Shown: piece after piece, positions 6,362 through 52,690 of the stretch | Position numbering within the stretch: position 1 is the stretch's first letter | Layout of the letters: every line of letters starts with the position of its first letter | Source of the DNA: Pyrinomonadaceae bacterium | Lineage (GTDB): Bacteria; Acidobacteriota; Blastocatellia; Pyrinomonadales; Pyrinomonadaceae | NCBI GenBank assembly: GCA_035438525.1 | Contig: DAORIL010000001.1 | Coordinates: 1-57,852 of the forward strand | Length of the DNA stretch: 57,852 bases | Direction of reading: 5' to 3' | Position numbers and translations under genes: made by a program | The notes under the pieces: generated by a model | What the model was told of the DNA's origin: nothing | What the model saw: only the letters and a program-made list of their open reading frames with translations | Databases searched by the model: none

Positions 6362-6558
6362 TTTCTTTTCGATAAATCTTTAAATCTCAAAATCAAATTA
6401 TTTTTCAAAGATAACATTTTACAAGGTAAAGTTGTATTTAAAAGCGAGATTTGAAAGCAAAACGACTCTCCGAAAAAAGTTTGGAACGGCATTTGCTCTA
6501 TCCATAATTAATACATTTGATATGTATCAAAATATTACAGCTAAGGAGAATTTGAGTT

Positions 6559-6678
6559 ATGGGTTTATTAAGAGGTGGATTAGCAGGATTAGGCGCTTGG
6601 AAATTAGGCGGTGGGATCATCAGCACAGTTATTATTTTCATAGTTTTATACTGGTTACTTGGATTCTTTATGAGATAA
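6559..6678 (+). CDS. Small hydrophobic peptide (39 aa), hypothetical
   Basis: The ATG at 6559 is preceded by AAGGAG (6544-6549). The product is MGLLRGGLAGLGAWKLGGGIISTVIIFIVLYWLLGFFMR. A hairpin terminator follows directly. The longer 6432-6704 ORF in the track is in a different frame. Confidence 0.45.
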   Translation: MGLLRGGLAGLGAWKLGGGIISTVIIFIVLYWLLGFFMR

Positions 6679-6704
6679 TATCGAAATCAAGTTATCTTAC
6701 TTAA

Positions 6705-6731
6705 AAGGCACAGTCTTCGTGCCTTTTTTGT
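6705..6731 (+). terminator. Rho-independent terminator
   Basis: Stem GGCAC (6707-6711) pairs with GTGCC (6719-6723) around a 7-nt loop. A T-run follows at 6724-6729. Confidence 0.7.
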
Positions 6732-6782
6732 TTTTACCGAATTTAGAAATTTTGAGGCTTTATGTGTTAATATTTTGCCAAT

Positions 6783-7568
6783 ATGAGTGAAACTATATTC
6801 AAAGACAATATTTTACAAGGCAAAGTCGCGCTTGTAACAGGTGGCGGAACGGGAATCACGGGCGGCGTTGCCCGCGCACTGGCAGAAGCAGGCGCAAAAG
6901 TAGCGATTACTTCGCGCAAAATCGAAAATCTGGAAGCGGCGGCAAAAGTCATCAATGACAACGGCGGCGAGTGTTTTCCGGTCGCTTGTGATGTGCGTGA
7001 TTTTGAAGCGGTTGAAAAAGCAATTGCCGCGACCGTCGAAAAGTTCGGCAAAATTGATATTGTCGTCAATGGTGCAGCAGGTAATTTTCTCTGCTTTGCC
7101 AAAGAACTTTCGCCAAACGGTTTTGGAACGGTGGTTGATATTGATACCAAAGGAACTTTTAATGTCTGCCGTGCCGCTTTTGAAGAACTCAAAAAATCGC
7201 AAGGTCAAATCTTAAATATCAGTGCCACGCTTCATTATCTTGCAACACCGATGCAAATTCACGTTTCGGCAGCAAAAGCAGGCGTGGATGCTATTACGCG
7301 AAACCTTTCGGCAGAATGGGGACGTTACGGAATCCGAGTTAATGGAATCGCGCCGGGTCCGATTGAAGACACCGAAGGAATGCGAAGATTAGCAACACCT
7401 GAAGTTTTGACGCAAATCAAAAAACGAATTCCGCTTGGAAGATTAGGCAGAATTGCCGACATTGAAAATTCGGCATTATTTTTATGCTCAGATGCTGCCA
7501 ATTATATCAACGGTGTGACGCTCGTTGTTGACGGCGGTCAATGGTTGTTGGGAACGAGTTTGGGTTAG
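6783..7568 (+). CDS. SDR family oxidoreductase (2,4-dienoyl-CoA reductase-like)
   Basis: GKVALVTGGGTGITGG is a Rossmann TGxxxGxG motif. Length is 261 aa, and the downstream S...AAKAG region is typical of classical SDRs. Confidence 0.85.
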   Translation: MSETIFKDNILQGKVALVTGGGTGITGGVARALAEAGAKVAITSRKIENLEAAAKVINDNGGECFPVACDVRDFEAVEKAIAATVEKFGKIDIVVNGAAGNFLCFAKELSPNGFGTVVDIDTKGTFNVCRAAFEELKKSQGQILNISATLHYLATPMQIHVSAAKAGVDAITRNLSAEWGRYGIRVNGIAPGPIEDTEGMRRLATPEVLTQIKKRIPLGRLGRIADIENSALFLCSDAANYINGVTLVVDGGQWLLGTSLG

Positions 7569-16979: not shown

Positions 16980-18359
16980 TTATTGCTTTTCCAAAATTTT
17001 TGCTTTTAATTTTCCGTTAGCGAGCCGGATTTGCACATTTTCATCTATTTTTATTTGTTCAATATCGTGCAAAATTTCACCTTTTTCATTTTCGGTAATT
17101 GAATAACCACGTTTCAAAACCGACAATGGCGAAAGTGCATCCAGCGAAGCCATTTTGATTTTCAGTTTTTCATCACTCGAATCAATAACATCCTTAATGG
17201 CCGAGATTTGACGTTGTCTCAAGATTGCCAGTTTTGTTTGATTTTCCGAAACTTTAGCCGCTAATTTGATTGGCGAAAGACGATTTCGTAATAGTTCCAG
17301 CCGCTTTTCATCTTTTCGTAATTTATCGTCAAAATTTGATTCTAATCGGTCGTTCAAATCTTCGATTTCATAACGCCAATCTTTTATTTTCTGCGGGAAT
17401 TCATGGAAAACCGAAGCAAATGCCAATTCCTGCAATGAGTTCCGTGATTGCAAAATCTTGTAATTGATTGATTGAAAAAGGTCATTGGTGCGCTGAAAAA
17501 TAAATGCTTCAATATTTTCTTCGTTTTCAGCCACAATTTCGGCGGCGGCGGAAGGCGTAGCGGCACGAACATCAGCCACAAAATCGGCAATTGTAAAATC
17601 AATTTCGTGACCAACGGCGGAAATAACAGGAATTTTGGAATTACGAATTGCTCGGGCGACCCTTTCTTCGTTAAATGCCCATAAATCTTCTGATGAACCG
17701 CCGCCGCGCCCGACAATCAGCACATCAATCTTTTCGGATGCAGTTTCGTTAAATTTATTGGCAAGCTTGATGGCTTTTTCGATTTCTTCGCCTGCTGTTT
17801 CGCCTTGGACACGGGTTGGAATAAGCGTGATGTGAACCGTTTTTGTCCGTCGCCCTAAAACATTCAAAATATCGTGAAAAGCCGCTCCATTGGGAGAAGT
17901 TACCACCCCAACCCGTTTAGGAAAATACGGCAAACGGCGTTTTAATTCCTCATCAAATAAGCCTTCTTTGGCAAGTTTGGCCTTGATTTGCTCAAACGCC
18001 ACTTTCAATGCGCCTTCGCCAACCGGTTCGAGCGATTCAACCAAAATCTGATATTCGCCTTTTGGTTGATAAACGGAAAGTTTTCCCCGCACTCGCACCT
18101 GCAAACCATCAAAAGGCTTAAACCGAATCCGCAGATTATTGCGAATATAACAAGCCGCTTTTAATTGTGAAAAACCGTCGTGCAGAGTGAAATACCAATG
18201 CCCCGAATTTGCGGCCATAAAATTGGTGATCTCACCTTCGAGCCAGACCGATGCAAAACGCCTTTCCAGTTCGCCTTTGACCTGTTCGTTTAATTCCGAA
18301 ACAGTTAGTGGACGGCGTTCTTCTTCGTCAAATAGTGAATCTAAAAGCGATGATTTCAT
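16980..18359 (-). CDS. xseA: Exodeoxyribonuclease VII large subunit
   Basis: N-terminal OB-fold region (VWLEGEITNF...SGHWYFTLHD), GVVTSPNGAAFHDILNVLGRR, LIVGRGGGSSEDLWAFNEE, and a coiled-coil C-terminus; 459 aa. Confidence 0.9.
   Translation of the reverse strand: MKSSLLDSLFDEEERRPLTVSELNEQVKGELERRFASVWLEGEITNFMAANSGHWYFTLHDGFSQLKAACYIRNNLRIRFKPFDGLQVRVRGKLSVYQPKGEYQILVESLEPVGEGALKVAFEQIKAKLAKEGLFDEELKRRLPYFPKRVGVVTSPNGAAFHDILNVLGRRTKTVHITLIPTRVQGETAGEEIEKAIKLANKFNETASEKIDVLIVGRGGGSSEDLWAFNEERVARAIRNSKIPVISAVGHEIDFTIADFVADVRAATPSAAAEIVAENEENIEAFIFQRTNDLFQSINYKILQSRNSLQELAFASVFHEFPQKIKDWRYEIEDLNDRLESNFDDKLRKDEKRLELLRNRLSPIKLAAKVSENQTKLAILRQRQISAIKDVIDSSDEKLKIKMASLDALSPLSVLKRGYSITENEKGEILHDIEQIKIDENVQIRLANGKLKAKILEKQ
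18315..18359. repeat. Direct repeat copy A (45 bp) = first 15 codons of xseA
   Basis: GCGTTCTTCTTCGTCAAATAGTGAATCTAAAAGCGATGATTTCAT is identical, letter for letter, to 19069-19113. Confidence 0.95.
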
Positions 18360-19068: not shown

Positions 19069-19113
19069 GCGTTCTTCTTCGTCAAATAGTGAATCTAAAA
19101 GCGATGATTTCAT
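19069..19113. repeat. Direct repeat copy B (45 bp); dead duplicate of the xseA 5' end
   Basis: Identical to 18315-18359. On the minus strand it would encode MKSSLLDSLFDEEERDLFS*. Its ATG overlaps the TGA of the methyltransferase gene (ATGA). Confidence 0.95.
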
Positions 19114-19955
19114 AAATTAAAAGGCAAAGTAATTTGAGTTTTTTCATCTTTCATCGGCAAAGAATAGTTTGAAATAAAAAGCTCTTTTCCTATTTGATCT
19201 GAAGATTCGGTCACATTTCTCATTCCATAAGTTAAATTCCAAGCGGTGATTTTGGCAAACGAAAAAAGTTCACGAATATACGGCGAATCATCATAGGTTA
19301 TAAGCCATTTATGCTGACATTTTCGCAGATTTTTAGCAAATCTTTCGTGATCGAATATTTTATGAAACTGTCCGTTTTTTCCGTAAAGTGCAGAATCTGT
19401 AGCGGAAAAATACGGCGGATCAAGAAATAAAAAGACATTTTCTCCACCAGCATTAACAACTTCTTCGTAATCAAGATTAGTAATTTTCACCTCCCGCAAA
19501 ACTTTTGGTAATTCGACTAATCTTTCAATACTAGAGTTCGTAAAACGCTTTTGATAAGCCTGATTTGAAAAGCCCCCTGCTTCGGTCGTGCCTGAAAAAG
19601 TGATGCGATTAAAGATAAAAAAAGTGGCAGCTAATTCTATTTCATTAAAATTTTCTTTGTTATCGCGTAAGAATTTGTGAAGCGATTTCCCATCAGAATA
19701 TTCGTTTTTCCAACTCCAAATTTGTTCGATCAACTTTTCAGAATTTAGCTGATTTTGCTGCCAAAAAACTATTAAATCCCTATAAATATCGTTCATCCAA
19801 AATTTTTTCGCGGGAAATTTTTGTTTGAGAAAAACAGAGATCGAGCCGCCGCCGACAAAAGGTTCTCTAAATTCATCAAACGAAGGAATTAATCCGACAA
19901 TTTTTTCAACTGCCCGACTTTTTCCGCCCGGATAACGTAATGGACTGCGAATCAT
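19110..19955 (-). CDS. Dam-family (D12 class) N6-adenine DNA methyltransferase
   Basis: LRYPGGKSR, FREPFVGGGSI (the FxGxG AdoMet motif) and FLDPPYFSA (DPPY catalytic motif) occur in alpha-group order; 281 aa. Confidence 0.85.
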   Translation of the reverse strand: MIRSPLRYPGGKSRAVEKIVGLIPSFDEFREPFVGGGSISVFLKQKFPAKKFWMNDIYRDLIVFWQQNQLNSEKLIEQIWSWKNEYSDGKSLHKFLRDNKENFNEIELAATFFIFNRITFSGTTEAGGFSNQAYQKRFTNSSIERLVELPKVLREVKITNLDYEEVVNAGGENVFLFLDPPYFSATDSALYGKNGQFHKIFDHERFAKNLRKCQHKWLITYDDSPYIRELFSFAKITAWNLTYGMRNVTESSDQIGKELFISNYSLPMKDEKTQITLPFNL

Positions 19956-35448: not shown

Positions 35449-36093
35449 ATGACAACAGCTTTTGAAAATATGGATCGAATGTATCGTTATCAGCGATATT
35501 TTTACGATTTAACCCGCAAATATTATCTCCTGGGGCGTGACAAACTCATTTCGCAAATGAATATCCAAAAAGGCGAAAATGTGTTGGAAGCCGGTTGCGG
35601 AACGGGGCGAAATCTGGCAATTTTGGCAAAAAAATATCCAAATGCTAATTTTTTTGGGCTTGATGCGTCGAGCGTGATGATCGAAGAATCACAGAAAAAA
35701 GTTGATAAATATTTGCTCAAAAATGTGCAGTTGCAAATCGCGTTAGCAGATGATTTTACACACCACACAACTTTTAATTTGGATGCACCTTTTGACACTA
35801 TCTATTTTAGCTATTCGATTTCGATGATTCCACCGTGGAAAGAATCTATCGCTAATGCCTTGAACAATTTAAAGTCAGGCGGAAGCTTTTATATCGTGGA
35901 TTTTTACGACCAAAAAGATTTGCCGCTCTGGTTTCAAAAAATGCTCCAAGGTTGGCTTAAACAGTTTCATGTTCAATTTTGGGGCGATTTAATGCCGCAT
36001 CTTGAATCGTTGGAAAAACAAGGTTTGGGGAAATTAACCGTCACTTCGATTGCCCGCCGCTATGCTTTTATTGCAAAATTTGAAAAGAAATGA
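35449..36093 (+). CDS. btaB: Diacylglycerylhomoserine N-methyltransferase (BtaB-like class I SAM methyltransferase)
   Basis: YDLTRKYYLLGRDKLI, VLEAGCGTGRNL, YFSYSISMIPPW and GGSFYIVDF are present. Size is 214 aa and the gene lies directly after btaA. Confidence 0.85.
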   Translation: MTTAFENMDRMYRYQRYFYDLTRKYYLLGRDKLISQMNIQKGENVLEAGCGTGRNLAILAKKYPNANFFGLDASSVMIEESQKKVDKYLLKNVQLQIALADDFTHHTTFNLDAPFDTIYFSYSISMIPPWKESIANALNNLKSGGSFYIVDFYDQKDLPLWFQKMLQGWLKQFHVQFWGDLMPHLESLEKQGLGKLTVTSIARRYAFIAKFEKK

Positions 36094-37073
36094 CCAAGGT
36101 TAAAATTTGCGGCATTACCAATCTCGAAGACGCGCTGCTTTCCGTCAAATTCGGCGCAGATGCTTTGGGTTTTAACTTTTACCCAAAAAGTCCGCGTTAT
36201 ATCGAAGCGGAAAAAGCGCAAGAAATCATCGAACAATTACCAACCGAAGTCCTAAAAGTCGGAGTTTTCGTCAATGAATCTTTAGAAAAAATCGCCGAAA
36301 TTGCCGAAACCGCGAAACTCAATGCACTCCAGCTCCACGGCGAAGAAACGCCCGAATTTGCTCAGGAATTAAAGGAAAAAACAGGCTTAGAAATTATCAA
36401 AGCATTCAGAGTTTCGCCAACTTTCAAATCGGAAGATGTTCTAAAATATGAAGTTGATGCAATTTTGCTTGATGCCTATAACCCGAAAGAACACGGTGGA
36501 ACAGGTGAGACTTTTGATTGGGAAATTGCGAAGAAAGTGCAGGAAATTTTTCCGAAAATGTATCTGGCGGGTGGACTTTCGGGGAATAATTTGATGAAAC
36601 TTTTGAGACATTTTCAGCCATTTGCGGTGGATGCGTGTAGTTTATTGGAAAAGGAAAAAGGAAAAAAAGACGAAACAAAGTTAAGAAGATTCCTTTGGAT
36701 TGCAGAAAAATCACCTCAAGAACTTCGGAGAAAAACTTTTGTAGTCGAACCACCAAATAACATTTATCAAATTCTATATGCAATAAACATGAGACCTCAA
36801 ATGTATTTTGGAAGAAAGTCGTTAATGGATTTATCTCATTTTCTTCTGGGTTTTGAATATGCTTTAGAATTTAGTCAATCAAAATTTAATACTGGAAAAT
36901 TCTTTTCAGAATTTGAATTTTGGTCATTGCAAAAACTAATTGGGAAAGATGAGTCTCCTTATCGTTTAGTAGGAATTCTATTGCAAAAATGTAAAAACGA
37001 TGAAGAAAAAGCCTTTGACCTTTTCTTTGCGCTTTTAGAAGAATTTAAGTTAGAAAAAGAAGATTTAAGCTAG
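36090..37073 (+). CDS. trpF: Phosphoribosylanthranilate isomerase with about 120-aa C-terminal extension of unknown function
   Basis: KICGITNLEDA..., QLHGEE and LAGGL are TrpF blocks within aa 1-205. The frame then continues (no stop) through ...INMRPQMYFGRKSLMDLSHFLLGFEYA...EEFKLEKEDLS. The start overlaps the btaB stop (ATGA). Confidence 0.8.
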   Translation: MTKVKICGITNLEDALLSVKFGADALGFNFYPKSPRYIEAEKAQEIIEQLPTEVLKVGVFVNESLEKIAEIAETAKLNALQLHGEETPEFAQELKEKTGLEIIKAFRVSPTFKSEDVLKYEVDAILLDAYNPKEHGGTGETFDWEIAKKVQEIFPKMYLAGGLSGNNLMKLLRHFQPFAVDACSLLEKEKGKKDETKLRRFLWIAEKSPQELRRKTFVVEPPNNIYQILYAINMRPQMYFGRKSLMDLSHFLLGFEYALEFSQSKFNTGKFFSEFEFWSLQKLIGKDESPYRLVGILLQKCKNDEEKAFDLFFALLEEFKLEKEDLS

Positions 37074-37084
37074 GAATATTTTAA

Positions 37085-38422
37085 TCAAGGGGCAGTTTCC
37101 GCAACCGTAACTGCCCAATATCCTTGCCCGGTTTCCTCGCTAATCGCCGACCAATACCAAGAAGAAACATCTGTCCAGTTTTTACCATTTTCACTATAGA
37201 TTCTTTCACAGACATTCAAACTTTCATTGTCTTTGGTTGCCCTAAAACACGACCATTTTTGTTGATTATCGTCAATTTTTAACGGTAAAGGTTTGATACT
37301 GTAGCCGATTGCCGAAAAGCAATCCGAAGCTGGATGGAGTTTGCGGGTTGCCGTCGCAACATAACGAATTATCAGTTCTCGATTGCCATCCGTAAACCGT
37401 CGAATCTCGCCCGGAAAATCATTTAAGAAAAACTGCTCGCGCTCTGACAATTCAAGTTGTTTTAATAATTTACCGTCAAATTCTTTTGGAAAACTAACAA
37501 CGTATTCATTCGTTTTTACGGTTTCTTTACCAACAAAAATAAATGGCGTGACAAAAGCTGAAAGACAAACAGCAACAAAAATTATTTGTTGGAAATTGCC
37601 AGGTTGAAAAATGCTGTTGGTTTGAGTTTTTGGTGTTCGTTTATCGTGGTTTCTAATTTTTAAAATCGTGAAAACTATCCCGATACAAGTCAAAACAAAG
37701 GCCGAAACACCGATTGCTTGATGAGCAAAATTCGGCATTTTAATGAGTTCGGCTTCCAGATAAAATAAACCTGTTGCCCGAAAAATATTGCCAAGCAGAA
37801 TAATTCCCAGGGCAGAAAAGAACGCTAAAACCGATTTTCTAAAATTGAACTGATAAATTGTAATCAGCAAGCTCGTCAAAAAAAATCCTGCCCAAAGCAT
37901 TTTTACACCGCTGCAAGGCGCATCAATCCAAATCAACTTTTCACCAAAATGAAGACAAACGCCATCACGAAAAACTACTAAACCATTTAATTTCAGCAAA
38001 AAAGCGGTTGCCTCGCCGATAATTATCCGCATCGGAAAGCCGAGATAAAACTGCATCGAAGCAACTATCGGTAAACTGAGCAAAAACAAACTCCAAATAC
38101 CAAAGTGAAATTTTCGTCCAAATCGCCAATCACTAATTGTCAGTGTGAGGCTGGTAACTGCAATGACAGCTCGTAAAAGCGGCGGTAGAAATGGAAAGGA
38201 AATGGCAAAAATTATGATGCTGGCGATTATTAAATAAAAGTTTATATTTTGTGCATTTTTGGTTTGACCTTTAAAACTCAGGAAACAAATTGCAGCTAGT
38301 GCCAAAATGCCCCAGGATTCATCGCCTGAAGTGGAAAGACGCAAAAAATACCAACGCCCAACACTCCAAAAGGCAAATAATTGCAGTAAAATTAAAACAA
38401 TTTTCGAGTTGCGAAAAGCCAT
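37085..38422 (-). CDS. Exosortase-family transpeptidase with C-terminal EpsI-like extension
   Basis: Polytopic protein with IWIDAPCSGVKMLW (catalytic Cys), LGNIFRATGLF (Arg) and FAHQAIGV (His). The soluble C-terminal domain is about 150 aa. Confidence 0.75.
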   Translation of the reverse strand: MAFRNSKIVLILLQLFAFWSVGRWYFLRLSTSGDESWGILALAAICFLSFKGQTKNAQNINFYLIIASIIIFAISFPFLPPLLRAVIAVTSLTLTISDWRFGRKFHFGIWSLFLLSLPIVASMQFYLGFPMRIIIGEATAFLLKLNGLVVFRDGVCLHFGEKLIWIDAPCSGVKMLWAGFFLTSLLITIYQFNFRKSVLAFFSALGIILLGNIFRATGLFYLEAELIKMPNFAHQAIGVSAFVLTCIGIVFTILKIRNHDKRTPKTQTNSIFQPGNFQQIIFVAVCLSAFVTPFIFVGKETVKTNEYVVSFPKEFDGKLLKQLELSEREQFFLNDFPGEIRRFTDGNRELIIRYVATATRKLHPASDCFSAIGYSIKPLPLKIDDNQQKWSCFRATKDNESLNVCERIYSENGKNWTDVSSWYWSAISEETGQGYWAVTVAETAP

Positions 38423-40791
38423 ACTAAAGCACCTAACACTACTGCAATCAACAAATACGTTTCAGGTTCGGGAATCGTTGGAACGCTTGATTTGTCAACC
38501 GGTTTAAGACCGAATTGGTCATATTGCTGTTGAGTTTCAAGCACTACTGCACCCGTTACAGGGGTTACAATTTGATTCTTTACTGCTAATTCTACCGCTT
38601 TTTTCTCGCCCTTTTCCGTTGCTAAAATCCGATTAACCTCATCATTTGCCCAGAGCCGAACAAGATGTTTCGATGTCTCTTTTGATACGGTAAGATCTGC
38701 TTTTGCAGTATTTACCCGACTGTAACCAAAACCTTTTTTCGATTGAGCAAGCAGAGAAATGAGTCTCTCCAAATCACTCTGCATATCGCCGAAACGCGGA
38801 ACATTTTGGATATAGTTCAAATTGTCGAGTTCTTTTTCAACCGTATCAAACCCGCTATCAGTTGAAATATCGTAAATTGCAGTTGCATTCGGGCGGCGAG
38901 TCAAACGCTGGGCTAATTCAAAGGAGGTGCTAAACTTAAACGGTTGCGGAGCATGAACCCAAATCACCACACTATTTGGTTTTTGGGCTGCCAAATCCCA
39001 GCCTTTGGTTAGAGCAGGTAAATTATCCGTCCCGCCATCAAAAGTTGCCTTTTGAATTTTTTCAGCAATTTCGGCAGGTTTGCCGGAGATGGAGTTTGGA
39101 TAGCTTAACTCTCTATTCAAAGAGTTTCCGTTGGTCAAAACCAGCGATGTTTCGGATTCGGGAGGTAAATTATTAATGACTGAGACGAGTTTTTGCTGCT
39201 CATTTTTCATAGAGACAGACGTATCAACCACAAAAATAAACTGTGCAGGTTTTACGCCGACATTTTCTGTTACTTCCTGAGTAATAAAATTATCACCGTC
39301 TTTTGTCCAAACTGATTTGAATTCATCCGATTTGAATGCACGAATTGATGAGTTTGCATCCAAAAGCTCTTTATCTGTAATATTTCCGCGAACGGCAAAA
39401 ATATTATCCGTTGTTTCGAGCTTGAGGTTTTTATTGGCGGATTGCAATTCTCGTTTCGATTCGAGCCAAACAATATGTTTGATTTCGGAAGGAACATTAA
39501 AGTTTTTATCGCGGAAATACGGGAGGCGAATTAAACCGTTTTTCTGATCTTCCAAAATAAGAGGAAAAGTAATCCCAATTCGCATTTTCATCTCGCCGCC
39601 ATTTTGCGGAATTGGAAAACATTTCAAATTAACGCGGTCACGTCCTGCTGTTGTTACCAAAACAGGATCGCGTTTCCTCGCTGTAACCTGTTCATAAGCA
39701 GTAGTTACGCGATTACGCTCGGCAAAAGCAGCTTCGCGTTCTTCGCCGTTTATCCACAGAGTAAGCCGTGAAACAACCGCGTTTGGCGGCAATTGGATTT
39801 GTGTAAACCCTTCCTGGTCACGATATTGATTTTTGTTTTTTAAGACAAAAGTCCATTCGAGATAACCGATTGATGCGTCATTATCAATCGAGCCGTCCAT
39901 CTGTGAAGCAACCAACGAAACATCTTTTTCACGCCAAAATCTTTCATCCTCGTCTCCAAAATCAAACAGCCCGATTCGAGGCGGGAGCGCGACCGAGTCA
40001 TAAGTTTTTCCGGTCAAACGATAATAAACTTCTTTAGCCTTTTCATTTGAGCCGACATCCGAACGACTAAAAAAGCCAATTACCAGATCAGAGATATAAA
40101 CCCTTTGTCGGCGTGAGTTTACAAGTTGTAGAATATAGTCATCACTGCCATATTTTCTCAAAAAATCCAGACCTTGTTCCTGACGTTCCACACTTTCGGC
40201 AGTTGCCATTTCCAGTCCAAATCTGGTTACGACAAATCGCAATTCGCTCAACGTAATTACTGAAACTATAATCAAAAAACCTGTTCCAAGTCCTTTCCAG
40301 GTTAGGGGAAACGGTTTAGTTTGAATATTTTTCAAGAGATATTTTCGTAACAAAAGAATCGCCCACAGCGCAAACATTGGCGAGAGTGGTAATAATCCCA
40401 ATCCATAAAAGACAATTCCGATGATTGAAATCGGTGACATCGGGAGGAAAAAGATTGAATAAAATAAACACGCCCCGGCTGAAAGTGTGCTGATCCAAGC
40501 CAGAAAATTGATGCGCTCAAGATTATTTCGATACAGCGACCACAAAATCTGTGTATTTGCCAATGGAACCAGTCCGACTACCAAAACGTGCCACAAACTC
40601 GGAACCGGATCAAAAAAACTATCCGCACACATTTTGGTCGAAAGTTCAAAAATCAAAGTTATGACCGGCAACAAAATTCCTGCACAAACGATAAAACCGA
40701 GTGAAAACGAGTGATCGGCAAGTGGCGAAGCTACTTTAGTATTGTTTGAATCTTCTGACATTGATTTACTCCTTTCAAAAAATAAATTCAC
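38392..40791 (-). CDS. Membrane-anchored VIT + VWA domain protein with C-terminal PEP-CTERM sorting signal
   Basis: The C-terminus VPTIPEPETYLLIAVVLGALVWLFATRKLF is PEP + TM + basic tail. The VWA MIDAS motif is FVVDTSVSM. A VIT-like region reads ...QLPPNAVVSRLTLWINGEEREAAFAER.... The stop overlaps the exosortase gene start by 31 nt. Confidence 0.8.
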   Translation of the reverse strand: MNLFFERSKSMSEDSNNTKVASPLADHSFSLGFIVCAGILLPVITLIFELSTKMCADSFFDPVPSLWHVLVVGLVPLANTQILWSLYRNNLERINFLAWISTLSAGACLFYSIFFLPMSPISIIGIVFYGLGLLPLSPMFALWAILLLRKYLLKNIQTKPFPLTWKGLGTGFLIIVSVITLSELRFVVTRFGLEMATAESVERQEQGLDFLRKYGSDDYILQLVNSRRQRVYISDLVIGFFSRSDVGSNEKAKEVYYRLTGKTYDSVALPPRIGLFDFGDEDERFWREKDVSLVASQMDGSIDNDASIGYLEWTFVLKNKNQYRDQEGFTQIQLPPNAVVSRLTLWINGEEREAAFAERNRVTTAYEQVTARKRDPVLVTTAGRDRVNLKCFPIPQNGGEMKMRIGITFPLILEDQKNGLIRLPYFRDKNFNVPSEIKHIVWLESKRELQSANKNLKLETTDNIFAVRGNITDKELLDANSSIRAFKSDEFKSVWTKDGDNFITQEVTENVGVKPAQFIFVVDTSVSMKNEQQKLVSVINNLPPESETSLVLTNGNSLNRELSYPNSISGKPAEIAEKIQKATFDGGTDNLPALTKGWDLAAQKPNSVVIWVHAPQPFKFSTSFELAQRLTRRPNATAIYDISTDSGFDTVEKELDNLNYIQNVPRFGDMQSDLERLISLLAQSKKGFGYSRVNTAKADLTVSKETSKHLVRLWANDEVNRILATEKGEKKAVELAVKNQIVTPVTGAVVLETQQQYDQFGLKPVDKSSVPTIPEPETYLLIAVVLGALVWLFATRKLF

Positions 40792-40883
40792 TTTATATCA
40801 TAAAGTTCTTTTTGACAAGTTGTTTATTTATTCAATCTCTATTGTCTTGCATTTTTAAGTAAAAACAAAGGAAAATCAAATCA

Positions 40884-40967
40884 ATGAATAATTTTCAACC
40901 AAACGAAAAAGGTTACTGGGGCGAATTCGGCGGACGATTATCTTTTCAATCAGGTAATTTATGTTAA
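40884..40967 (+). pseudogene. trpB 5' remnant (first 18 codons of trpB, then a 9-codon out-of-context tail)
   Basis: It encodes [27 protein letters not shown]. 40882-40936 matches 41517-41571 with 4 mismatches. It retains the upstream AAGGAAAA RBS-like sequence. Confidence 0.8.
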
Positions 40968-41185
40968 AATTAACCATTATGACCACGACTTTAGAAGTGA
41001 TTTACGAAAACGGTATTTTTAAACCACTTTCGAGCGTTCCGAAAAATTTCAAAGAACACGAAAGGATGAAAATTATTATTGAAACCGAATTTGATGCAGA
41101 TTTAGAAAGCGAAATTGCTCAATGGGAGCAAGCAAGCGATGAGGATTTTTTAAAATTTGAAGAGGCTTTAGGAGAAAAACCTTAA
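40961..41185 (+). CDS. Antitoxin, DUF104/AF2212-like
   Basis: ...TLEVIYENGIFKPLSSVPKNFKEHERMKIIIE matches the DUF104 pattern (IEAxYENGVFKPL...). The true start may be the ATG at 40979. The stop overlaps the toxin ATG (TAATG). Confidence 0.6.
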   Translation: MLKLTIMTTTLEVIYENGIFKPLSSVPKNFKEHERMKIIIETEFDADLESEIAQWEQASDEDFLKFEEALGEKP

Positions 41186-41526
41186 TGGCTCGCGGGGATG
41201 TTTTGTTAGTTAGTTTGCCTGTTAGTGAGACCCGCGAACAATCCGGTCGCCGTCCGGCAATTGCATTGCAAACTGATATTATGGGCGAACCAATGCTGAT
41301 GATTGCCCCAATTACTTCAAATCTAAGTGCCTCAAGATTTGCGTTTTCTGTCCAAATCGAACCTTCTCCAGAAAACGGTTTGACTCAAACTTCTATTGTG
41401 ATGATTTTTCAAATGCGTGCGATTGATAAAACTAGAATTATCAAGAAAATTGGTGAACTTTCCAAATCAGATTTAGAAAAAGTTGATACTCAAATCTGGA
41501 AAATGCTTAAACCTAACAATGAATAA
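41185..41526 (+). CDS. mazF: Type II toxin, MazF/PemK family endoribonuclease
   Basis: [31 protein letters not shown]...IAPITSN...IDKTRI is the MazF signature; 113 aa. Confidence 0.8.
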
Positions 41527-42715
41527 CTTCCAACCAAACGAAAAAGGTTACTGGGGCGAATTCGGTGGGCGTTTTGTTCCCGAAACGCTGATGTCGCCAC
41601 TCGAAGAATTGACTTCGGCTTATTTTACTATCCGTGATGATGCAGATTTTCAAGCCGAATTTCTCAATCTGTTACAAGACTTTTCCGGTCGCCCGACTCC
41701 GCTTTTTTATGCCAAAAGATTATCGGAAACCCTCGGCGGGGCAAAAATTTATCTTAAACGCGAAGATTTAGGACATACCGGCTCGCACAAAATCAACAAC
41801 GCCATCGGACAGGTTTTACTTGCCAGACGAATGGGCAAAAAAAGAATTATTGCCGAAACCGGAGCAGGTCAACACGGTGTAGCTACGGCGACTGTTTGTG
41901 CATTATTTGGTTTAGAATGTGTGGTTTATATGGGAACCGAAGATATGCGACGGCAAGAGTTGAATGTCTTTCGGATGAGACTTTTGGGTGCAGAAGTTCG
42001 CGGTGTTGATTCAGGTTCGCGGACGTTGAAAGACGCAATTAATGAAGCCTTACGCGATTGGGTGACAAATGTTGATTCGACTTATTATTTGCTCGGCTCG
42101 GCTCTCGGACCGCATCCGTATCCGCTGATGGTGCGTGATTTTCAAAGTCACATTGGGCGCGAAGCCCGTCAACAAATTCTCGAAAAAGAAGGTCGTTTAC
42201 CTGATTTGTTAGTGGCGTGCGTGGGTGGCGGTTCAAATTCGATTGGACTTTTTCATCCGTTTTTACAAGACGAATTGGTGCGAATGATTGGTGTTGAAGC
42301 CGGCGGAAAAAGTTCAAAATTAGGCGAACACGCGGCACGTTTTATGGATGGTGGAAAGGTCGGAGTTTTGCAGGGAACAAAAAGTTATTTGTTGCAAGAT
42401 GATCGTGGAAATATTTCGCTAACTCATTCAATATCAGCAGGTTTAGATTACGCTTCGATTGGTCCTGAACACGCATTTTTGCACGATTTGGGCAGAGTAG
42501 AATATGTTTCGGCTTCGGATGAAGAGGCATTAAAGGCTTTTCAAACTTTATCGCAAACTGAAGGAATTATTCCCGCTTTGGAAAGTTCACACGGGATTGC
42601 TCATGCGATAAAAATTGCGCCGGAAATGTCGCCCAACGAAATTATGGTCGTTAATCTTTCGGGTCGTGGCGATAAGGATGTCAATCAAGTGCAGGAAATG
42701 CTCCAAAATAAATAA
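41519..42715 (+). CDS. trpB: Tryptophan synthase beta chain
   Basis: [25 protein letters not shown]..., HTGSHKINN (PLP lysine), [10 protein letters not shown] and GGGSNSIG are present. I prefer the ATG at 41519, which overlaps the mazF stop, because the track start at 41483 adds 12 non-conserved residues. Confidence 0.9.
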
Positions 42716-44966: not shown

Positions 44967-45032
44967 AAAAGTTTAGGAAGTCTAAAAAGTATATTCTTAC
45001 CTTCCAAAACTTCCGCAACTTCCTAAACTTTT
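44967..45032. terminator. GTTTAGGAAGT-family hairpin; 15-bp perfect stem, bidirectional terminator candidate
   Basis: AAAAGTTTAGGAAGT (44967-81) pairs perfectly with ACTTCCTAAACTTTT (45018-32). It lies between convergent purB and the 45031-45468 gene. Confidence 0.8.
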
Positions 45033-45468
45033 AAACATTTATTCCCAAGATCTTGGCAGCCAATTTGCCGACAATCGGAATTTTGAACCATCTGCTATTG
45101 TAGGCTTGGATTGCACCGTAAATGCTGCCGCCAATAATGGTTAATGGTCCGAGAATAATTACCGCAAACCAAATAATTATTCCGAGAATGCTGAATATCA
45201 ATCCTACAATTGCTCCGGCATTTCCTAAAGCCGCACCAATCACCCCGCCTATTATGTTAAGAGCAAAAAACAAAATAAAAGCAATAATGAAGATGGGAAT
45301 GAACATAACGTGAAAAAGAAATGCCTGGAGTGCGTGGAATTTGGCAAATTTATTTTCCTTCTCAGTAATTAAAACAATTAGTCCAATAATGCCAACTAAA
45401 TAGCTTAACAAAGCAGCTACGTTGCCATCCATTCCAATCGAAGTTTTAGCGTTGGGGTTGTTGTCCAT
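45031..45468 (-). CDS. DUF4870-like small membrane protein, paralog 3
   Basis: GMDGNVAALLSYLVGIIGLIVLITEKENKFAKFHALQAF... with 3-4 TM segments. Confidence 0.7.
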   Translation of the reverse strand: MDNNPNAKTSIGMDGNVAALLSYLVGIIGLIVLITEKENKFAKFHALQAFLFHVMFIPIFIIAFILFFALNIIGGVIGAALGNAGAIVGLIFSILGIIIWFAVIILGPLTIIGGSIYGAIQAYNSRWFKIPIVGKLAAKILGINV

Positions 45469-45545
45469 AATGTTTGAAAAAAATAAAGCAAGAGAAGTAT
45501 CAAAAGTTGAAAACTCTCTTGCTTTATTTGAAATAGCTTAGAAGT

Positions 45546-45938
45546 TTATGCCCATTTTTCAGCAAAACTACCAACTATTGGTAATTTGTTCATATTGTTG
45601 CCAAATGCTTTGATTGCCGAATAAATTATTCCGCCTAAAAATACCAGAATCCAGACGAAATAAAGTAAAAATGTTAATCCGGCTAAAATGCCTCCCAATG
45701 TTTGAGAAGCGGCGCCACCAATTATAGAAATTATGACGCCTACAATAATAATTGCGAATAGTCCGACAATATACAAAACTACCCACAGCATAGATTGTAT
45801 CGCGTGAAATCTGACAAATTTATTATCTTTTTCAATAAAAATCAGAATCAAAGCAACAATTCCGACAATATAGCCAAGCATTGCAGCTATGTTTCCATCT
45901 AATCCAAGTGCGGACTTTCCGCTCGGCGCATTTTGCAT
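45546..45938 (-). CDS. DUF4870-like small membrane protein, paralog 2
   Basis: GLDGNIAAMLGYIVGIVALILIFIEKDNKFVRFHAIQSM... Confidence 0.7.
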   Translation of the reverse strand: MQNAPSGKSALGLDGNIAAMLGYIVGIVALILIFIEKDNKFVRFHAIQSMLWVVLYIVGLFAIIIVGVIISIIGGAASQTLGGILAGLTFLLYFVWILVFLGGIIYSAIKAFGNNMNKLPIVGSFAEKWA

Positions 45939-45970
45939 AAGAACTCCTTAAGTTATGATTATTAAATTAG

Positions 45971-46348
45971 TTACGACCATTTTTCAGCTAAACCGCCAAT
46001 GATTGGAAGTTTATATGAACCGCCGGTAAATCCTTTGATACAACCAACAATCATCAAAATCAAAAATCCGATAATCACAGCAAAATAAAGCAGTGAAACT
46101 AATGCGGCAATTGCTGACGAACCGGTTACACCTGCCAAAATTCCGCCAATAGCTAAAACTCCAATTAACAAGACAATATACAAACCGGTCAAAAGTAATG
46201 ACTGAAAAGCATGAAAACGAACAGCCTTATTATCTTTGTCACTAACAATGACGATAATGCTGTAAACTAAACTAATTAAACAAATTGGAAGGTAGCAAAG
46301 TAGCGACCCTATATTTGTATCTAATCCAAGCGCGGTTTTACCATTCAT
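45971..46348 (-). CDS. DUF4870-like small membrane protein, paralog 1
   Basis: GLDTNIGSLLCYLPICLISLVYSIIVIVSDKDNKAVRFHAFQSL... Confidence 0.7.
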   Translation of the reverse strand: MNGKTALGLDTNIGSLLCYLPICLISLVYSIIVIVSDKDNKAVRFHAFQSLLLTGLYIVLLIGVLAIGGILAGVTGSSAIAALVSLLYFAVIIGFLILMIVGCIKGFTGGSYKLPIIGGLAEKWS

Positions 46349-52451: not shown

Positions 52452-52524
52452 TGGAGGAGAAAAGGAGTCGAACCTCTAACTTCGCTTTTGGAGAGCGATA
52501 TTTTTCCGTTAAACTATCTCCTCC
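52452..52524 (-). tRNA. tRNA-like gene 3 of 3; anticodon loop CUCCAAA (CCA, Trp-type); 8-bp acceptor stem
   Basis: Minus strand, folded by eye: GGAGGAGA-TA-GTTT-AACGGAA-AAAT-A-TCGCT-CTCCAAA-AGCGA-AGTT-AGAGG-TTCGACT-CCTTT-TCTCCTCC-A. Confidence 0.6.
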
Positions 52525-52531
52525 GAACTTA

Positions 52532-52603
52532 CGGAAAGGAACAGGACTCGAACCTATAATCAAGATTGGCAATCAAGCGTTTTCCCCTTAAACTATCCTT
52601 TCC
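52532..52603 (-). tRNA. tRNA-like gene 2 of 3; anticodon loop UUGCCAA (GCC, Gly-type); weak anticodon stem; 8-bp acceptor stem
   Basis: GGAAAGGA-TA-GTTT-AAGGGGA-AAAC-G-CTTGA-TTGCCAA-TCTTG-ATT-ATAGG-TTCGAGT-CCTGT-TCCTTTCC-G. The anticodon stem has two U-U mismatches and the variable loop is 3 nt. Confidence 0.45.
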
Positions 52604-52610
52604 AAATTGA

Positions 52611-52684
52611 CGGAAAAGAGCAGGACTCGAACCCAACAAATCTAGCTTGCGGAGCTAGTGTTTTTCCTTTAAACTATCTTTTCC
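52611..52684 (-). tRNA. tRNA-like gene 1 of 3; anticodon loop UCCGCAA (CGC, Ala-type by position, C at position 33); 8-bp acceptor stem
   Basis: GGAAAAGA-TA-GTTT-AAAGGAA-AAAC-A-CTAGC-TCCGCAA-GCTAG-ATTTG-TTGGG-TTCGAGT-CCTGC-TCTTTTCC-G. Confidence 0.5.
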
Positions 52685-52690
52685 AAAGAG

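Follow-up and report, generated by a model that had tools for sequence, protein, structure and literature searches.

The window analyzed here, which is the whole 57,852-nucleotide stretch (ca. 58 kb) of the Pyrinomonadaceae contig, carries a duplicated trpB start with a two-gene cassette between the copies. The cassette comprises an AF2212-like antitoxin gene and a PemK/MazF toxin gene, and only these two toxin-antitoxin (TA) genes lie between the two copies (Table 1). The upstream copy is a short relic of trpB (here called the stub), and the downstream copy is the working start of a full-length trpB gene, which encodes a PALP domain and retains the motif GSHKINN. The preliminary description of this locus had placed the toxin within a "tryptophan-biosynthesis transcription unit." This was overstated because trpB is solitary in the window, being separated from trpF by 4.4 kb and two opposite-strand genes. 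The annotated neighbors comprise the exosortase and VIT/VWA genes, one gene for a protein without a Pfam match, purB, genes for MamF-like proteins, purS, and purQ. The exosortase-VIT/VWA block was not found at the trpB flanks of relatives. An extended trpF of the same type as in the window lies directly 5' of the cassette in locus L096 and upstream of the cassette in L086, and the window trpF is probably the ancestral upstream neighbor of the cassette.

Table 1. Features of the trpF-trpB region of the window
Feature	Position	Strand	Evidence or remark
trpF (PRA isomerase), C-terminally extended by ~120 aa	36090..37073	+	PF00697, E 6.8e-43
Two-gene opposite-strand block, now separating trpF from stub-TA-trpB	37085..40791	-	PF09721, PF08487, PF13519
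Exosortase (first gene of block)	37085-38422	-	
VIT/VWA protein (second gene of block)	38392-40791	-	
Shine-Dalgarno-like AAGGAAAA, upstream of stub ATG	40868..40875	+	Read from sequence; conserved in L173
Upstream repeat copy, relic stub (first ~55 nt of trpB)	40882..40939	+	53/58 vs 41517-41574
Stub ORF, 27 aa (18 trpB-like + 9 residues)	40884..40967	+	Stop TAA 40965-40967 inside -10 box
20-nt spacer ATCTTTTCAATCAGGTAATT between stub and cassette promoter	40940..40959	+	Weak -35-like TTTTCA
Extended -10 box TATGTTAAAAT, predicted promoter	40960..40970	+	TG 40962-40963, TAAAAT 40965-40970
Antitoxin, 68 aa, AF2212-like (DUF104/COG2880)	40979..41185	+	PF01954, E 3.7e-10
Toxin, MazF/PemK family, 113 aa	41185..41526	+	PF02452, E 1e-24
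Downstream repeat copy, working trpB start	41517..41574	+	ATG 41519
trpB (398-aa tryptophan synthase beta), third cistron after the TA pair	41519..42715	+	PF00291, E 6e-45

The duplication and the order of stub, antitoxin, toxin, and trpB were confirmed as first described, the gene identities by matches to PF01954, PF02452, and PF00291. The start-to-start spacing of the two copies is 635 nt, and approximately 3e-14 such pairs at distances of up to 3 kb would arise in the window by chance. All five mismatches in the 55- to 58-nt repeat are at third codon positions and synonymous. Independent assemblies from other samples (L081 to L085) were 99.99 to 100% identical across the structure, which is therefore not an assembly artifact; the stub-to-cassette junction is present in L082 and L083.

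The cassette is predicted to be a type II TA operon composed of an AbrB-superfamily antitoxin and a MazF endoribonuclease. The PF02452 match covers 105 of the 113 residues of the toxin, in which RRP and ITS motifs are readable, and MazF, EndoA, and PemK structures in the PDB were matched with E values of 7e-11 to 6e-10. A total of 516 MazF homologs were found at E values of <1e-10. The antitoxin matched AF2212 (PDB 2NWT; E 4.9e-5), and its domain family (DUF104/COG2880) has been assigned to the AbrB superfamily, which includes MazE (PMC2701414). As in the MazEF, PemIK, and Kis-Kid systems, a small antitoxin gene lies directly upstream of, and overlaps, a gene for a PemK/MazF-fold toxin (stop-start overlap TAATG). 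The antitoxin also appears to be modular in the manner of MazEF/PemIK antitoxins, in which the N-terminal domains are swappable and a toxin-binding motif is conserved at the C terminus; its C-terminal motif, WEQASDEDFLKFE, is also found in a different antitoxin type. Unlike in MazEF/PemIK, the N-terminal domain is AF2212-like, a domain first described with PIN toxins. The pairing of this domain with MazF had been called atypical, but it is the rule in this MazF family, occurring at dozens of loci and in one natural fusion protein (P0107). Both genes are under purifying selection, with amino acid identities of 76 to 85% against four-fold-site differences of ~0.45 to 0.5. In a further difference from MazEF/PemIK, the window pair has no close relative on plasmids, where no match exceeded 42% identity, or on phages, where the search gave no match. 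The closest MazF relatives not linked to trpB (P0012 and P0013) were considered as a donor context for the cassette and ruled out, since both the antitoxin N terminus and the flanks differ.

The cassette begins with what is predicted to be its own promoter, an extended -10 box that ends 8 nt before the antitoxin ATG. The arrangement T(A/G)TGNTAAAAT, 8 to 9 nt, and ATG is conserved in ~30 of the 37 family loci, in unrelated contexts, and a promoter scan gave a match at 40943-40970 with a TG ahead of the -10. The antitoxin start proposed earlier (ATG 40961) is part of this conserved box, and the start kept in relatives is ATG 40979. The stub, which had been described as running into the antitoxin start, ends inside the box, 11 nt before the true start. 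From the box to the mazF stop the cassette is compact, and trpB follows without a gap. As first described, the mazF stop (TAA 41524-41526) overlaps the trpB ATG, by 8 nt (AAC AAT GAA TAA); the same overlap is shared by all relatives with this junction, which we refer to as type B. No terminator was found between the toxin gene and trpB. We infer from these features that the promoter would yield a near-leaderless antitoxin-mazF-trpB mRNA, on which trpB translation may be coupled to mazF termination. Because a conserved, predicted promoter element belongs to the cassette itself, a single transcript from a trpB promoter is not required.

The unit is not peculiar to the window. An antitoxin-MazF-trpB adjacency was found at at least 12 further Pyrinomonadaceae loci belonging to several lineages (L086, L087-90, L092, L096, L097, L110, and L173 to L178). 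MazF proteins of these trpB-linked relatives share 76 to 85% amino acid identity with that of the window. Four-fold-site divergence from the window was 0.43 to 0.51 for mazF and 0.44 to 0.52 for trpB, values that are equal and near saturation, indicating that the unit is old and co-inherited. The cassette is a long-inherited neighbor of trpB in a clade of soil and sludge Pyrinomonadaceae (Acidobacteriota), and this persistence, like the stop/start overlap that joins the operon to a biosynthetic gene, distinguishes it from MazEF/PemIK. Further evidence on its origin comes from four loci (L092, L096, L097, and L110) at which a cassette without a stub lies directly between trpF and trpB. The gene order is trpG-D-C-F-TA-B in L092, and the cassette likewise stands behind trpF in L097 and L110 in the same junction, here called type A, in which the mazF stop is followed by 4 nt and then the trpB ATG. 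The trpF-cassette-trpB arrangement without a stub is apparently the oldest form. These stubless loci, the breadth of the distribution, and the equal divergence of mazF and trpB overturn the original reading of the locus as an independent TA insertion into trpB.

The window trpB shares 86 to 96% amino acid identity with trpB genes that are linked to the TA pair; with TA-less Pyrinomonadaceae trpB genes, the identity reaches 86%. In neighbor-joining trees of these short sequences, the TA-linked trpB genes form a near-clade and the type B MazFs are monophyletic. The two trees are not fully congruent: the TA-less L001 is nested among the TA-bearing trpB genes, and L087 is placed differently in the trpB and MazF trees. 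Because of these properties of the trees, the polarity from type A to type B is one that we infer rather than observe. A quarter-by-quarter scan of four-fold sites along trpB gave no clear mosaic breakpoint at this level of saturation. None of 80 species-representative trpB loci had the flanking genes or the cassette, and thus no empty site was found at this locus; the relatives that share the upstream region of the window (L173 and L087-90) all already carry the cassette.

The stub varies much more than the cassette. It is intact in the window and fully or almost fully preserved in L086 and L178, and stub ORFs often terminate within the -10 box. In L173, the closest relative, the stub has a frameshift and its TGG codon has changed to TGA; decay is also seen in L174 and L087, and L176/L177 lack a stub altogether. 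Each stub resembles the working trpB start of its own genome: lineage-specific variants are common to the two, and stub-to-stub distances exceed stub-to-own-start distances, even though silent sites outside this segment approach saturation. This tracking points to gene conversion. The window stub differs from the working trpB start of L173 at only 1 of 55 aligned positions while retaining the stub-specific CGATT end common to the L173 stub. We initially took the purely silent differences within the window repeat to demonstrate a foreign allele; this argument was dropped, as gene conversion suffices.

The history that we favor, with moderate confidence, is that of an old, co-inherited type II TA operon upstream of trpB, with a stub generated by one-sided homologous recombination. 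The cassette would at first have stood between trpF and trpB (type A), and loss of an AAA codon together with a 9-nt slippage deletion would have produced the overlapping type B junction. The stub would be what is left of the resident trpB start after its displacement by an incoming cassette-plus-trpB segment, which was joined through a homologous crossover inside trpB and an illegitimate join at trpB +55 to a 20-nt foreign flank, i.e., by homology-facilitated illegitimate recombination or a Campbell-type equivalent. Occasional gene conversion would have kept the stub similar to the working start, with decay where conversion ceased. Insertions would later have moved trpF away, the inserted DNA being the exosortase-VIT/VWA block in the window and, in other lineages, a PIN-type TA. 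The spacer that adjoins the stub is identical in L173 and matches at 16 of 20 positions in L086; apart from its orthologs, a search for a donor returned only weak hits that are probably due to chance. L174 and L178 have a different junction at the right-hand end of the stub, and stub-forming events may have occurred repeatedly and independently.

An in-genome tandem duplication is the strongest alternative, although we consider it unlikely. Unequal sister-chromatid exchange or replication slippage would have copied the cassette with the first 55 nt of trpB, after which the first cassette copy was deleted or overwritten and the stub was left, without any foreign donor. Unequal exchange is known to be promoted by direct repeats, and the stubs of the window and L173 open with the type B-specific CAATGAATAAT behind GGAAAAT; because GGAAAAT recurs at the mazF 3' end, a mazF tail may have been copied too. 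In L086, where the order is trpF, a degraded PIN-type TA, trpB stub, MazF TA, and trpB, the TGTGTTAAAAT box occurs twice, with the additional copy right behind trpF, ahead of the degraded TA and the stub. However, the stubs of L086, L174, and L178 carry ATGAATTTC, the start found in TA-less and type A trpB genes, and not the type B start. A simple tandem-duplication junction would also need a spacer resembling the sequence before the -10 box of type A loci, and the mismatch counts against this scenario: the 20-nt spacer is unlike the corresponding sequence (trpF 3' ends) in any of them.

Duplications of gene ends also flank other small inserts, and these bear on the mechanism. The window contains three duplication-flanked inserts, whose cargoes (MazF, ParE, and a 39-aa peptide) are unrelated. 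One of them is the ParD/ParE pair at xseA, where the previously reported repeat was verified (18315-18359 and 19069-19113; 45 nt, 100% identical). Elsewhere in the MazF family, clear cases are L124, L134, and L108; the duplicated stretches in this family, copied from the 3' end of the neighboring gene, are 230, 70, and at least 106 nt long. A weaker 34-nt repeat at L142 contains a motif of the cyanobacterial GCGATCGC type and is possibly an unrelated repeat element. Apparent repeats at L102 and L103 were artifacts of indexing and were not counted. At most loci of the family there is no duplication. Copy-to-copy differences fall at third codon positions in 31 of 42 cases (P = 1e-7). The L124 copies are 11% different, with 18 synonymous and 8 nonsynonymous codon differences; they resemble two alleles that diverged while both were functional genes, unlike a copy decaying in situ, which again disfavors tandem duplication. 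Allele-like divergence of this kind is what homology-facilitated illegitimate recombination predicts. The window's own repeat fits gene conversion as well, since recent conversion and silent drift of the working copy would also explain its third-position bias. On these sequence comparisons, the repeats appear to fit one-sided homologous recombination and not the footprint of a transposase.

A more speculative idea, which we hold to be distinctly improbable, is that the cassettes (-10 box plus cargo) are integrase-free elements that hitchhike on homology, each with a short, highly conserved piece of a housekeeping gene end as a portable attachment site. If so, RecA-dependent recombination between the repeats would excise a circle of the cassette and one repeat, and after uptake by a relative a single crossover at the same gene would restore an intact gene with a fresh stub, cassette loss being penalized by toxin addiction. 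Such a cycle would explain stubs that track their own allele, duplication boundaries at start codons, three inserts in one window, and a -10 box at each insert. It predicts a deletion product in which the stub is joined to the trpB body (GGAAAATCAAATCAATGAATAA...CGTTTTGTTCCC) and a circle junction in which the mazF 3' end and one repeat are followed by ATCTTTTCAAT.

The cassette could instead be what remains of an integrase-bearing island that entered the trpB 5' end, with the repeats as attL and attR and everything but the addictive TA deleted. Some integrative elements, such as phage 21 and e14 in icd, generate a second copy of the end of the protein-coding gene that they target. Like them, the window insert is bounded by gene-end direct repeats with mostly silent differences, and the gene stays intact; allele-like divergence of duplicated gene ends is a typical trace of integrative elements. 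Unlike them, it has no integrase, measures only ~0.6 kb, belongs to a set with variable repeat lengths, and has an apparently ancestral form that is free of repeats, the type A cassette between trpF and trpB. Only 20 nt separate the cassette from the left repeat, and the right repeat overlaps it by 8 nt; a comparably tight fit is seen at L124, L134, and L108. No integrase, site-specific recombinase, or remnant thereof was seen among the annotated neighbors, and the lack of close relatives on known plasmids and phages likewise speaks against this origin. [quoted passage not shown] Those islets are patchy and eroding (PMC13617665), whereas the window cassette is stably co-inherited and physically coupled to trpB. 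Taken with this evidence, we judge descent from an eroded element to be quite improbable.

Even less probable is that the stub functions as a translated leader peptide or upstream ORF that regulates TA-trpB according to tryptophan or translation status. The intact ORFs noted above, the Shine-Dalgarno-like AAGGAAAA, the Trp codon, and the frequent termination in the -10 box would suit such a role, and trp leader-peptide attenuation likewise involves a short Trp-containing ORF upstream of a trp gene. In contrast to attenuation, the Trp codon is single rather than tandem, and the ORF is a decaying trpB copy. A search of 40500-41700 gave no Rfam family at E < 0.1, and folding of the same interval (minimum free energy z = 0.21) gave no terminator, antiterminator, or attenuator structure. 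The pattern of similarity is that of gene conversion, and the disruption of the stub in L173, L174, and L087 and its absence from L176/L177 are at odds with a conserved leader peptide. The stub is probably a nonfunctional pseudogene relic.

A cassette-specific, transposition-like insertion with staggered cuts, 45- to 58-bp target duplications, and selection for a regenerated host start is the least credible alternative: three duplication-flanked inserts in one window, duplications at xseA and trpB that begin at the ATG or 2 nt before it, and the location of three of the four TGNTANWAT-spacer-ATG sites of the window at such inserts favor it, but the duplications vary in length (29, 45, 58, 70, at least 106, and 230 nt) and involve either gene end (5' or 3') in either orientation, most family loci have none, no terminal inverted repeats were found at the cassette ends, no enzyme gene lies inside or nearby, the three window cargoes are unrelated, and the stubless type A loci suggest that the TA-trpB adjacency predates the stub. 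In the same respects (no terminal inverted repeats, no encoded transposase, and no fixed duplication length) the cassettes differ from transposable elements. Of the shared insertion mechanism suggested earlier, the recurrence of duplication-flanked cassettes therefore holds, but a dedicated cut-and-paste process with a long target duplication of fixed length is disfavored.

Chromosomal TA pairs are usually viewed as volatile, patchily distributed passengers. The window TA, by comparison, has remained attached to the trpB start across deeply diverged lineages. The cassette probably supplies the promoter and translation start of trpB, so that its deletion would also cripple trpB; if so, this dependence would represent a selfish module becoming entrenched. 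Under one-sided homologous recombination, the stubs would preserve traces of the way in which small cassettes may become attached to core genes without a dedicated enzyme, and partial gene-end duplications with mostly silent differences, the expected trace of this process, could serve as markers in genome-wide searches.

Displacement-type arrays, which include Rhs C-terminal displacement and CDI orphan modules, offer a close parallel. In the window, a housekeeping gene has contributed its 5' end as the displaced fragment and a TA pair forms the cargo, which sets the locus apart from the effector-immunity displacement arrays of type VI secretion systems (PMC5361080), as do the small size of the fragment (only ~55 nt), its homogenization with the working copy, and the putative nature of the recombination mechanism. 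The resemblances to those arrays are that a new module is joined beside a conserved gene acting as a homologous anchor, that the older gene end persists as a truncated orphan fragment, and that modules are stacked at one hotspot, as in L086.

The start of trpB occurs twice in the window, as a direct repeat in which 53 of 58 positions are identical between copies 635 nt apart; the chance expectation in the window is about 3e-14 such pairs within 3 kb. Full-length trpB starts in the downstream copy and a short ORF (i.e., the stub) in the upstream copy, and between them lie genes for an AF2212-like (DUF104) antitoxin and a MazF toxin, with an 8-nt overlap between the mazF stop and the trpB ATG. 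The preliminary description, which had reported a repeated trpB start flanking a toxin-antitoxin (TA) pair, was therefore confirmed overall as an observation, and its interpretation was supported in part. Across this region, the stub-cassette junction included, independent assemblies from other activated-sludge samples showed 99.99 to 100% identity, so the structure is not an assembly artifact.

Features of the window considered in this analysis
Feature	Position	Description
SDR repeat	6404-6432 / 6798-6826	Previously unlisted; insert 6433-6797
Small peptide gene	6559-6678	39 aa, hydrophobic; SD AAGGAG
SDR gene	6783-7568	
xseA repeat	18315-18359 / 19069-19113	45 nt, 100% identical; flanks ParD/ParE, opposite strand
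D12-class DNA adenine methyltransferase	19110-19955	
trpF	36090-37073	C-terminal extension of ~120 aa, no Pfam match
trpB-start repeat	40882-40939 / 41517-41574	Upstream copy, stub; downstream copy, working start
-10 box	40960-40970	TATGTTAAAAT
Stub ORF stop	40965-40967	ORF of 27 aa
Antitoxin	40979-41185	68 aa; PF01954, E 3.7e-10; AF2212 structure 2NWT, E 5e-5
mazF	41185-41526	PemK/MazF PF02452, E 1e-24; MazF, EndoA, and PemK structures, E ~1e-10
trpB	41519-42715	PALP domain, E 6e-45
Tandem paralogues	45031-46348 (-)	Three, 125 to 145 aa; weak MamF/MmsF-like Pfam hits
Repeated units	52501-52687	Three of ~80 nt, spacing 79 to 81 nt

As a TA module the pair is ordinary and belongs to a known class. 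Its unusual aspects are the long, tight, and co-inherited coupling to trpB and the gene-end stubs, which may record recombination-based cassette addition. The pairing of a DUF104 antitoxin with MazF had been regarded as atypical, but members of this family normally carry an AF2212-like/MazF pair, and one natural fusion protein (P0107) also belongs to it. Like MazE, the DUF104/COG2880 domain falls in the AbrB superfamily (PMC2701414). Relatives with a different antitoxin N-terminal domain keep the C-terminal motif W-E-x-A-S-D-E-D-F-L-K-F-E, as is typical of modular antitoxins.

The window MazF had 516 homologues (E < 1e-10), and among the loci of its closest homologues the order antitoxin-MazF-trpB recurred in L086, L087-90, L092, L096, L097, L110, and L173-L178, from several metagenome-assembled genomes and metagenomes. 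In type A loci (L097, L110, L092, and L096), the cassette lies directly 3' of trpF, there is no stub, and 4 nt separate the mazF stop from the trpB ATG (start MNF/YQPNE); the entire trpG-D-C-F-TA-B operon is visible in L092. In type B loci (the window, L173-178, L086, and L087-90), the mazF stop overlaps a new ATG (G ATG AAT AA; start MNNFQ). The alignment suggests that the type B junction arose from the type A one when an AAA codon was lost and slippage deleted 9 nt, GAAT[AATCAAATG]AATT. Type B MazFs were monophyletic in a neighbor-joining tree, and the TA-linked trpB genes formed a near-clade. At four-fold degenerate sites, mazF differed from its window counterpart by 0.43 to 0.51 and trpB by 0.44 to 0.52, with amino acid identities of 76 to 85% (MazF) and 88 to 96% (TrpB), indicating that the two genes are equally old neighbors, both under purifying selection. 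The lineages bearing the unit are deeply diverged, and the cassette is not a recent insertion "inside" trpB.

The nearest trpB loci are from Pyrinomonadaceae (Acidobacteriota, Blastocatellia), and in TA-less relatives trpB lies within a trpD-C-F-B-A operon. The window trpB is solitary, with VIT/VWA and exosortase genes on the other strand on its 5' side and an unannotated gene followed by purB on its 3' side. The trpF extension is common to the window, L096, and L086; the extended gene abuts the cassette in L096 and lies 4.4 kb upstream in the window. The trpF and trpB genes of TA-less L001 read as a single fused ORF.

We aligned the 75 nt 5' of the antitoxin across family members to locate the onset of homology. 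In many unrelated contexts (about 30 of 37 loci), homology began with T(A/G)TGNTAAAAT, followed by 8 to 9 nt and the ATG. The window version of this -10 box, preceded by TG, was also flagged by a consensus scan, which suggests that the cassette carries its own promoter. The ATG at 40961, used in the ORF list as the antitoxin start, is part of this box, as is the stub ORF stop; the conserved start is the ATG at 40979. With the box 8 nt from the ATG and no Shine-Dalgarno sequence, the mRNA is probably leaderless or nearly so. No terminator was found between the overlapping mazF and trpB; trpB is thus predicted to be the third cistron of the cassette transcript, with translation coupled by termination-reinitiation.

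The stub is near intact in the window, L086, and L178, heavily decayed in L174 and L087, and absent from L176 and L177. In the closest relative, L173, whose MazF is 92% identical and whose upstream region is the same, the stub has lost 1 nt, reads TGA in place of TGG, and carries several other changes. Because L173, L086, and the window have a right-hand junction and a 20-nt spacer in common, a single event gave rise to at least these three stubs; L174 and L178 have different junctions. Each stub bears variants that are otherwise confined to the working start of its own genome (AAAGGC and GGTGGA in L086, TAT in L178, CGAC in L087, and AATGAAC in L174), and stub-to-stub distances exceed stub-to-own-start distances, although silent sites between lineages are nearly saturated. 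Such tracking is the signature of repeated gene conversion or repeated re-formation. The window stub differs from the L173 working start at 1 of 55 positions and retains the stub-specific CGATT end of the L173 stub; the window's working start differs from it at four further silent sites. This accounts for every mismatch in the window repeat being synonymous: the stub was copied recently from a working allele, and later changes arose in a copy under selection. The stub region showed no attenuator-like structure (folding z = 0.21) or Rfam match. The stub appears to be a relic in decay that gene conversion has preserved.

When every family locus was scanned for repeats flanking the cassette, most had none. 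Clear cases outside the window were L124 (230 nt, 88.7% identical, 3' end of a convergent EamA gene), L134 (70 nt, 3' end of another convergent gene), and L108 (at least 106 nt, 3' end of an upstream oxidase gene, far copy frameshifted). Two more duplication-flanked inserts lie within the window. The xseA duplication, also described previously, begins exactly at the xseA ATG; in its upstream copy the ATG overlaps the methyltransferase stop (ATGA), and TGTTATAAT precedes the working start by 12 nt. The SDR repeat (29 to 30 nt) comprises codons 6 to 15 of the SDR gene, with the other copy 394 nt upstream and four differences, all synonymous; its insert holds a hairpin terminator and a peptide gene, the product of which may act as a small membrane toxin or may just be a small membrane protein. 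In the cases tested, third codon positions accounted for 31 of 42 differences between copies (P = 1e-7); in L124, 18 codon differences were synonymous and 8 nonsynonymous. The extended -10 motif TGNTANWAT, followed after 5 to 12 nt by an ATG that opens an ORF of 50 codons or more, occurred only four times in the window (57.8 kb) versus 0.37 in shuffles (6783, 18359 [-], 40979, and 41293), three times at the three duplication-flanked inserts of the window (SDR, xseA, and antitoxin starts).

One-sided homologous recombination, proposed for effector-immunity "displacement" arrays (PMC5361080), would fit the duplication-flanked cassettes. A homologous crossover within the neighboring gene would anchor an incoming fragment that carries a cassette beside an allele of that gene, and the other end of the fragment would be joined illegitimately; a join within the same gene would leave the resident gene end as a stub, and one outside it would leave no repeat. 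This mechanism, like expression and toxicity of the cassette, we infer from sequence. A serious rival is that the segment was duplicated in tandem within the genome and the first copy of the cassette was then lost; what chiefly speaks against this is the 20-nt spacer, which is unlike any sequence that precedes the -10 box at type A loci. A transposase-type footprint or eroded integrase island is argued against by the same features that one-sided recombination fits: duplications of variable length, which involve either end of a gene and either orientation, unrelated cargo, no inverted repeats at cassette ends, no recombinase gene among annotated neighbors, and no close relatives on plasmids or phages.

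L086 resembles a displacement-array stack (trpF, -10 box, degraded PIN-type TA, trpB stub, spacer, MazF cassette, and trpB). A PIN-type TA pair (VapC-like, 154 aa) separates trpF from the stub or cassette in some lineages (L086, 640-850, internally deleted; L174 and L176, upstream), and the trpF|trpB interval thus looks like a hotspot for stacking TA cassettes. A subclade of this MazF family, 11 nt 5' of a short-chain dehydrogenase gene (MDINLQGKKAFVCGS...), was seen in at least seven metagenome contigs (L095, L098, L100, L101, L103, L107, and L155), probably a second conserved TA-host-gene coupling. Elsewhere in the window, direct-repeat families D2, D9, and D10 stem from the three tandem paralogues, and the repeated units ending in ...GGACTCGAACC look like a candidate tRNA gene cluster on the minus strand.
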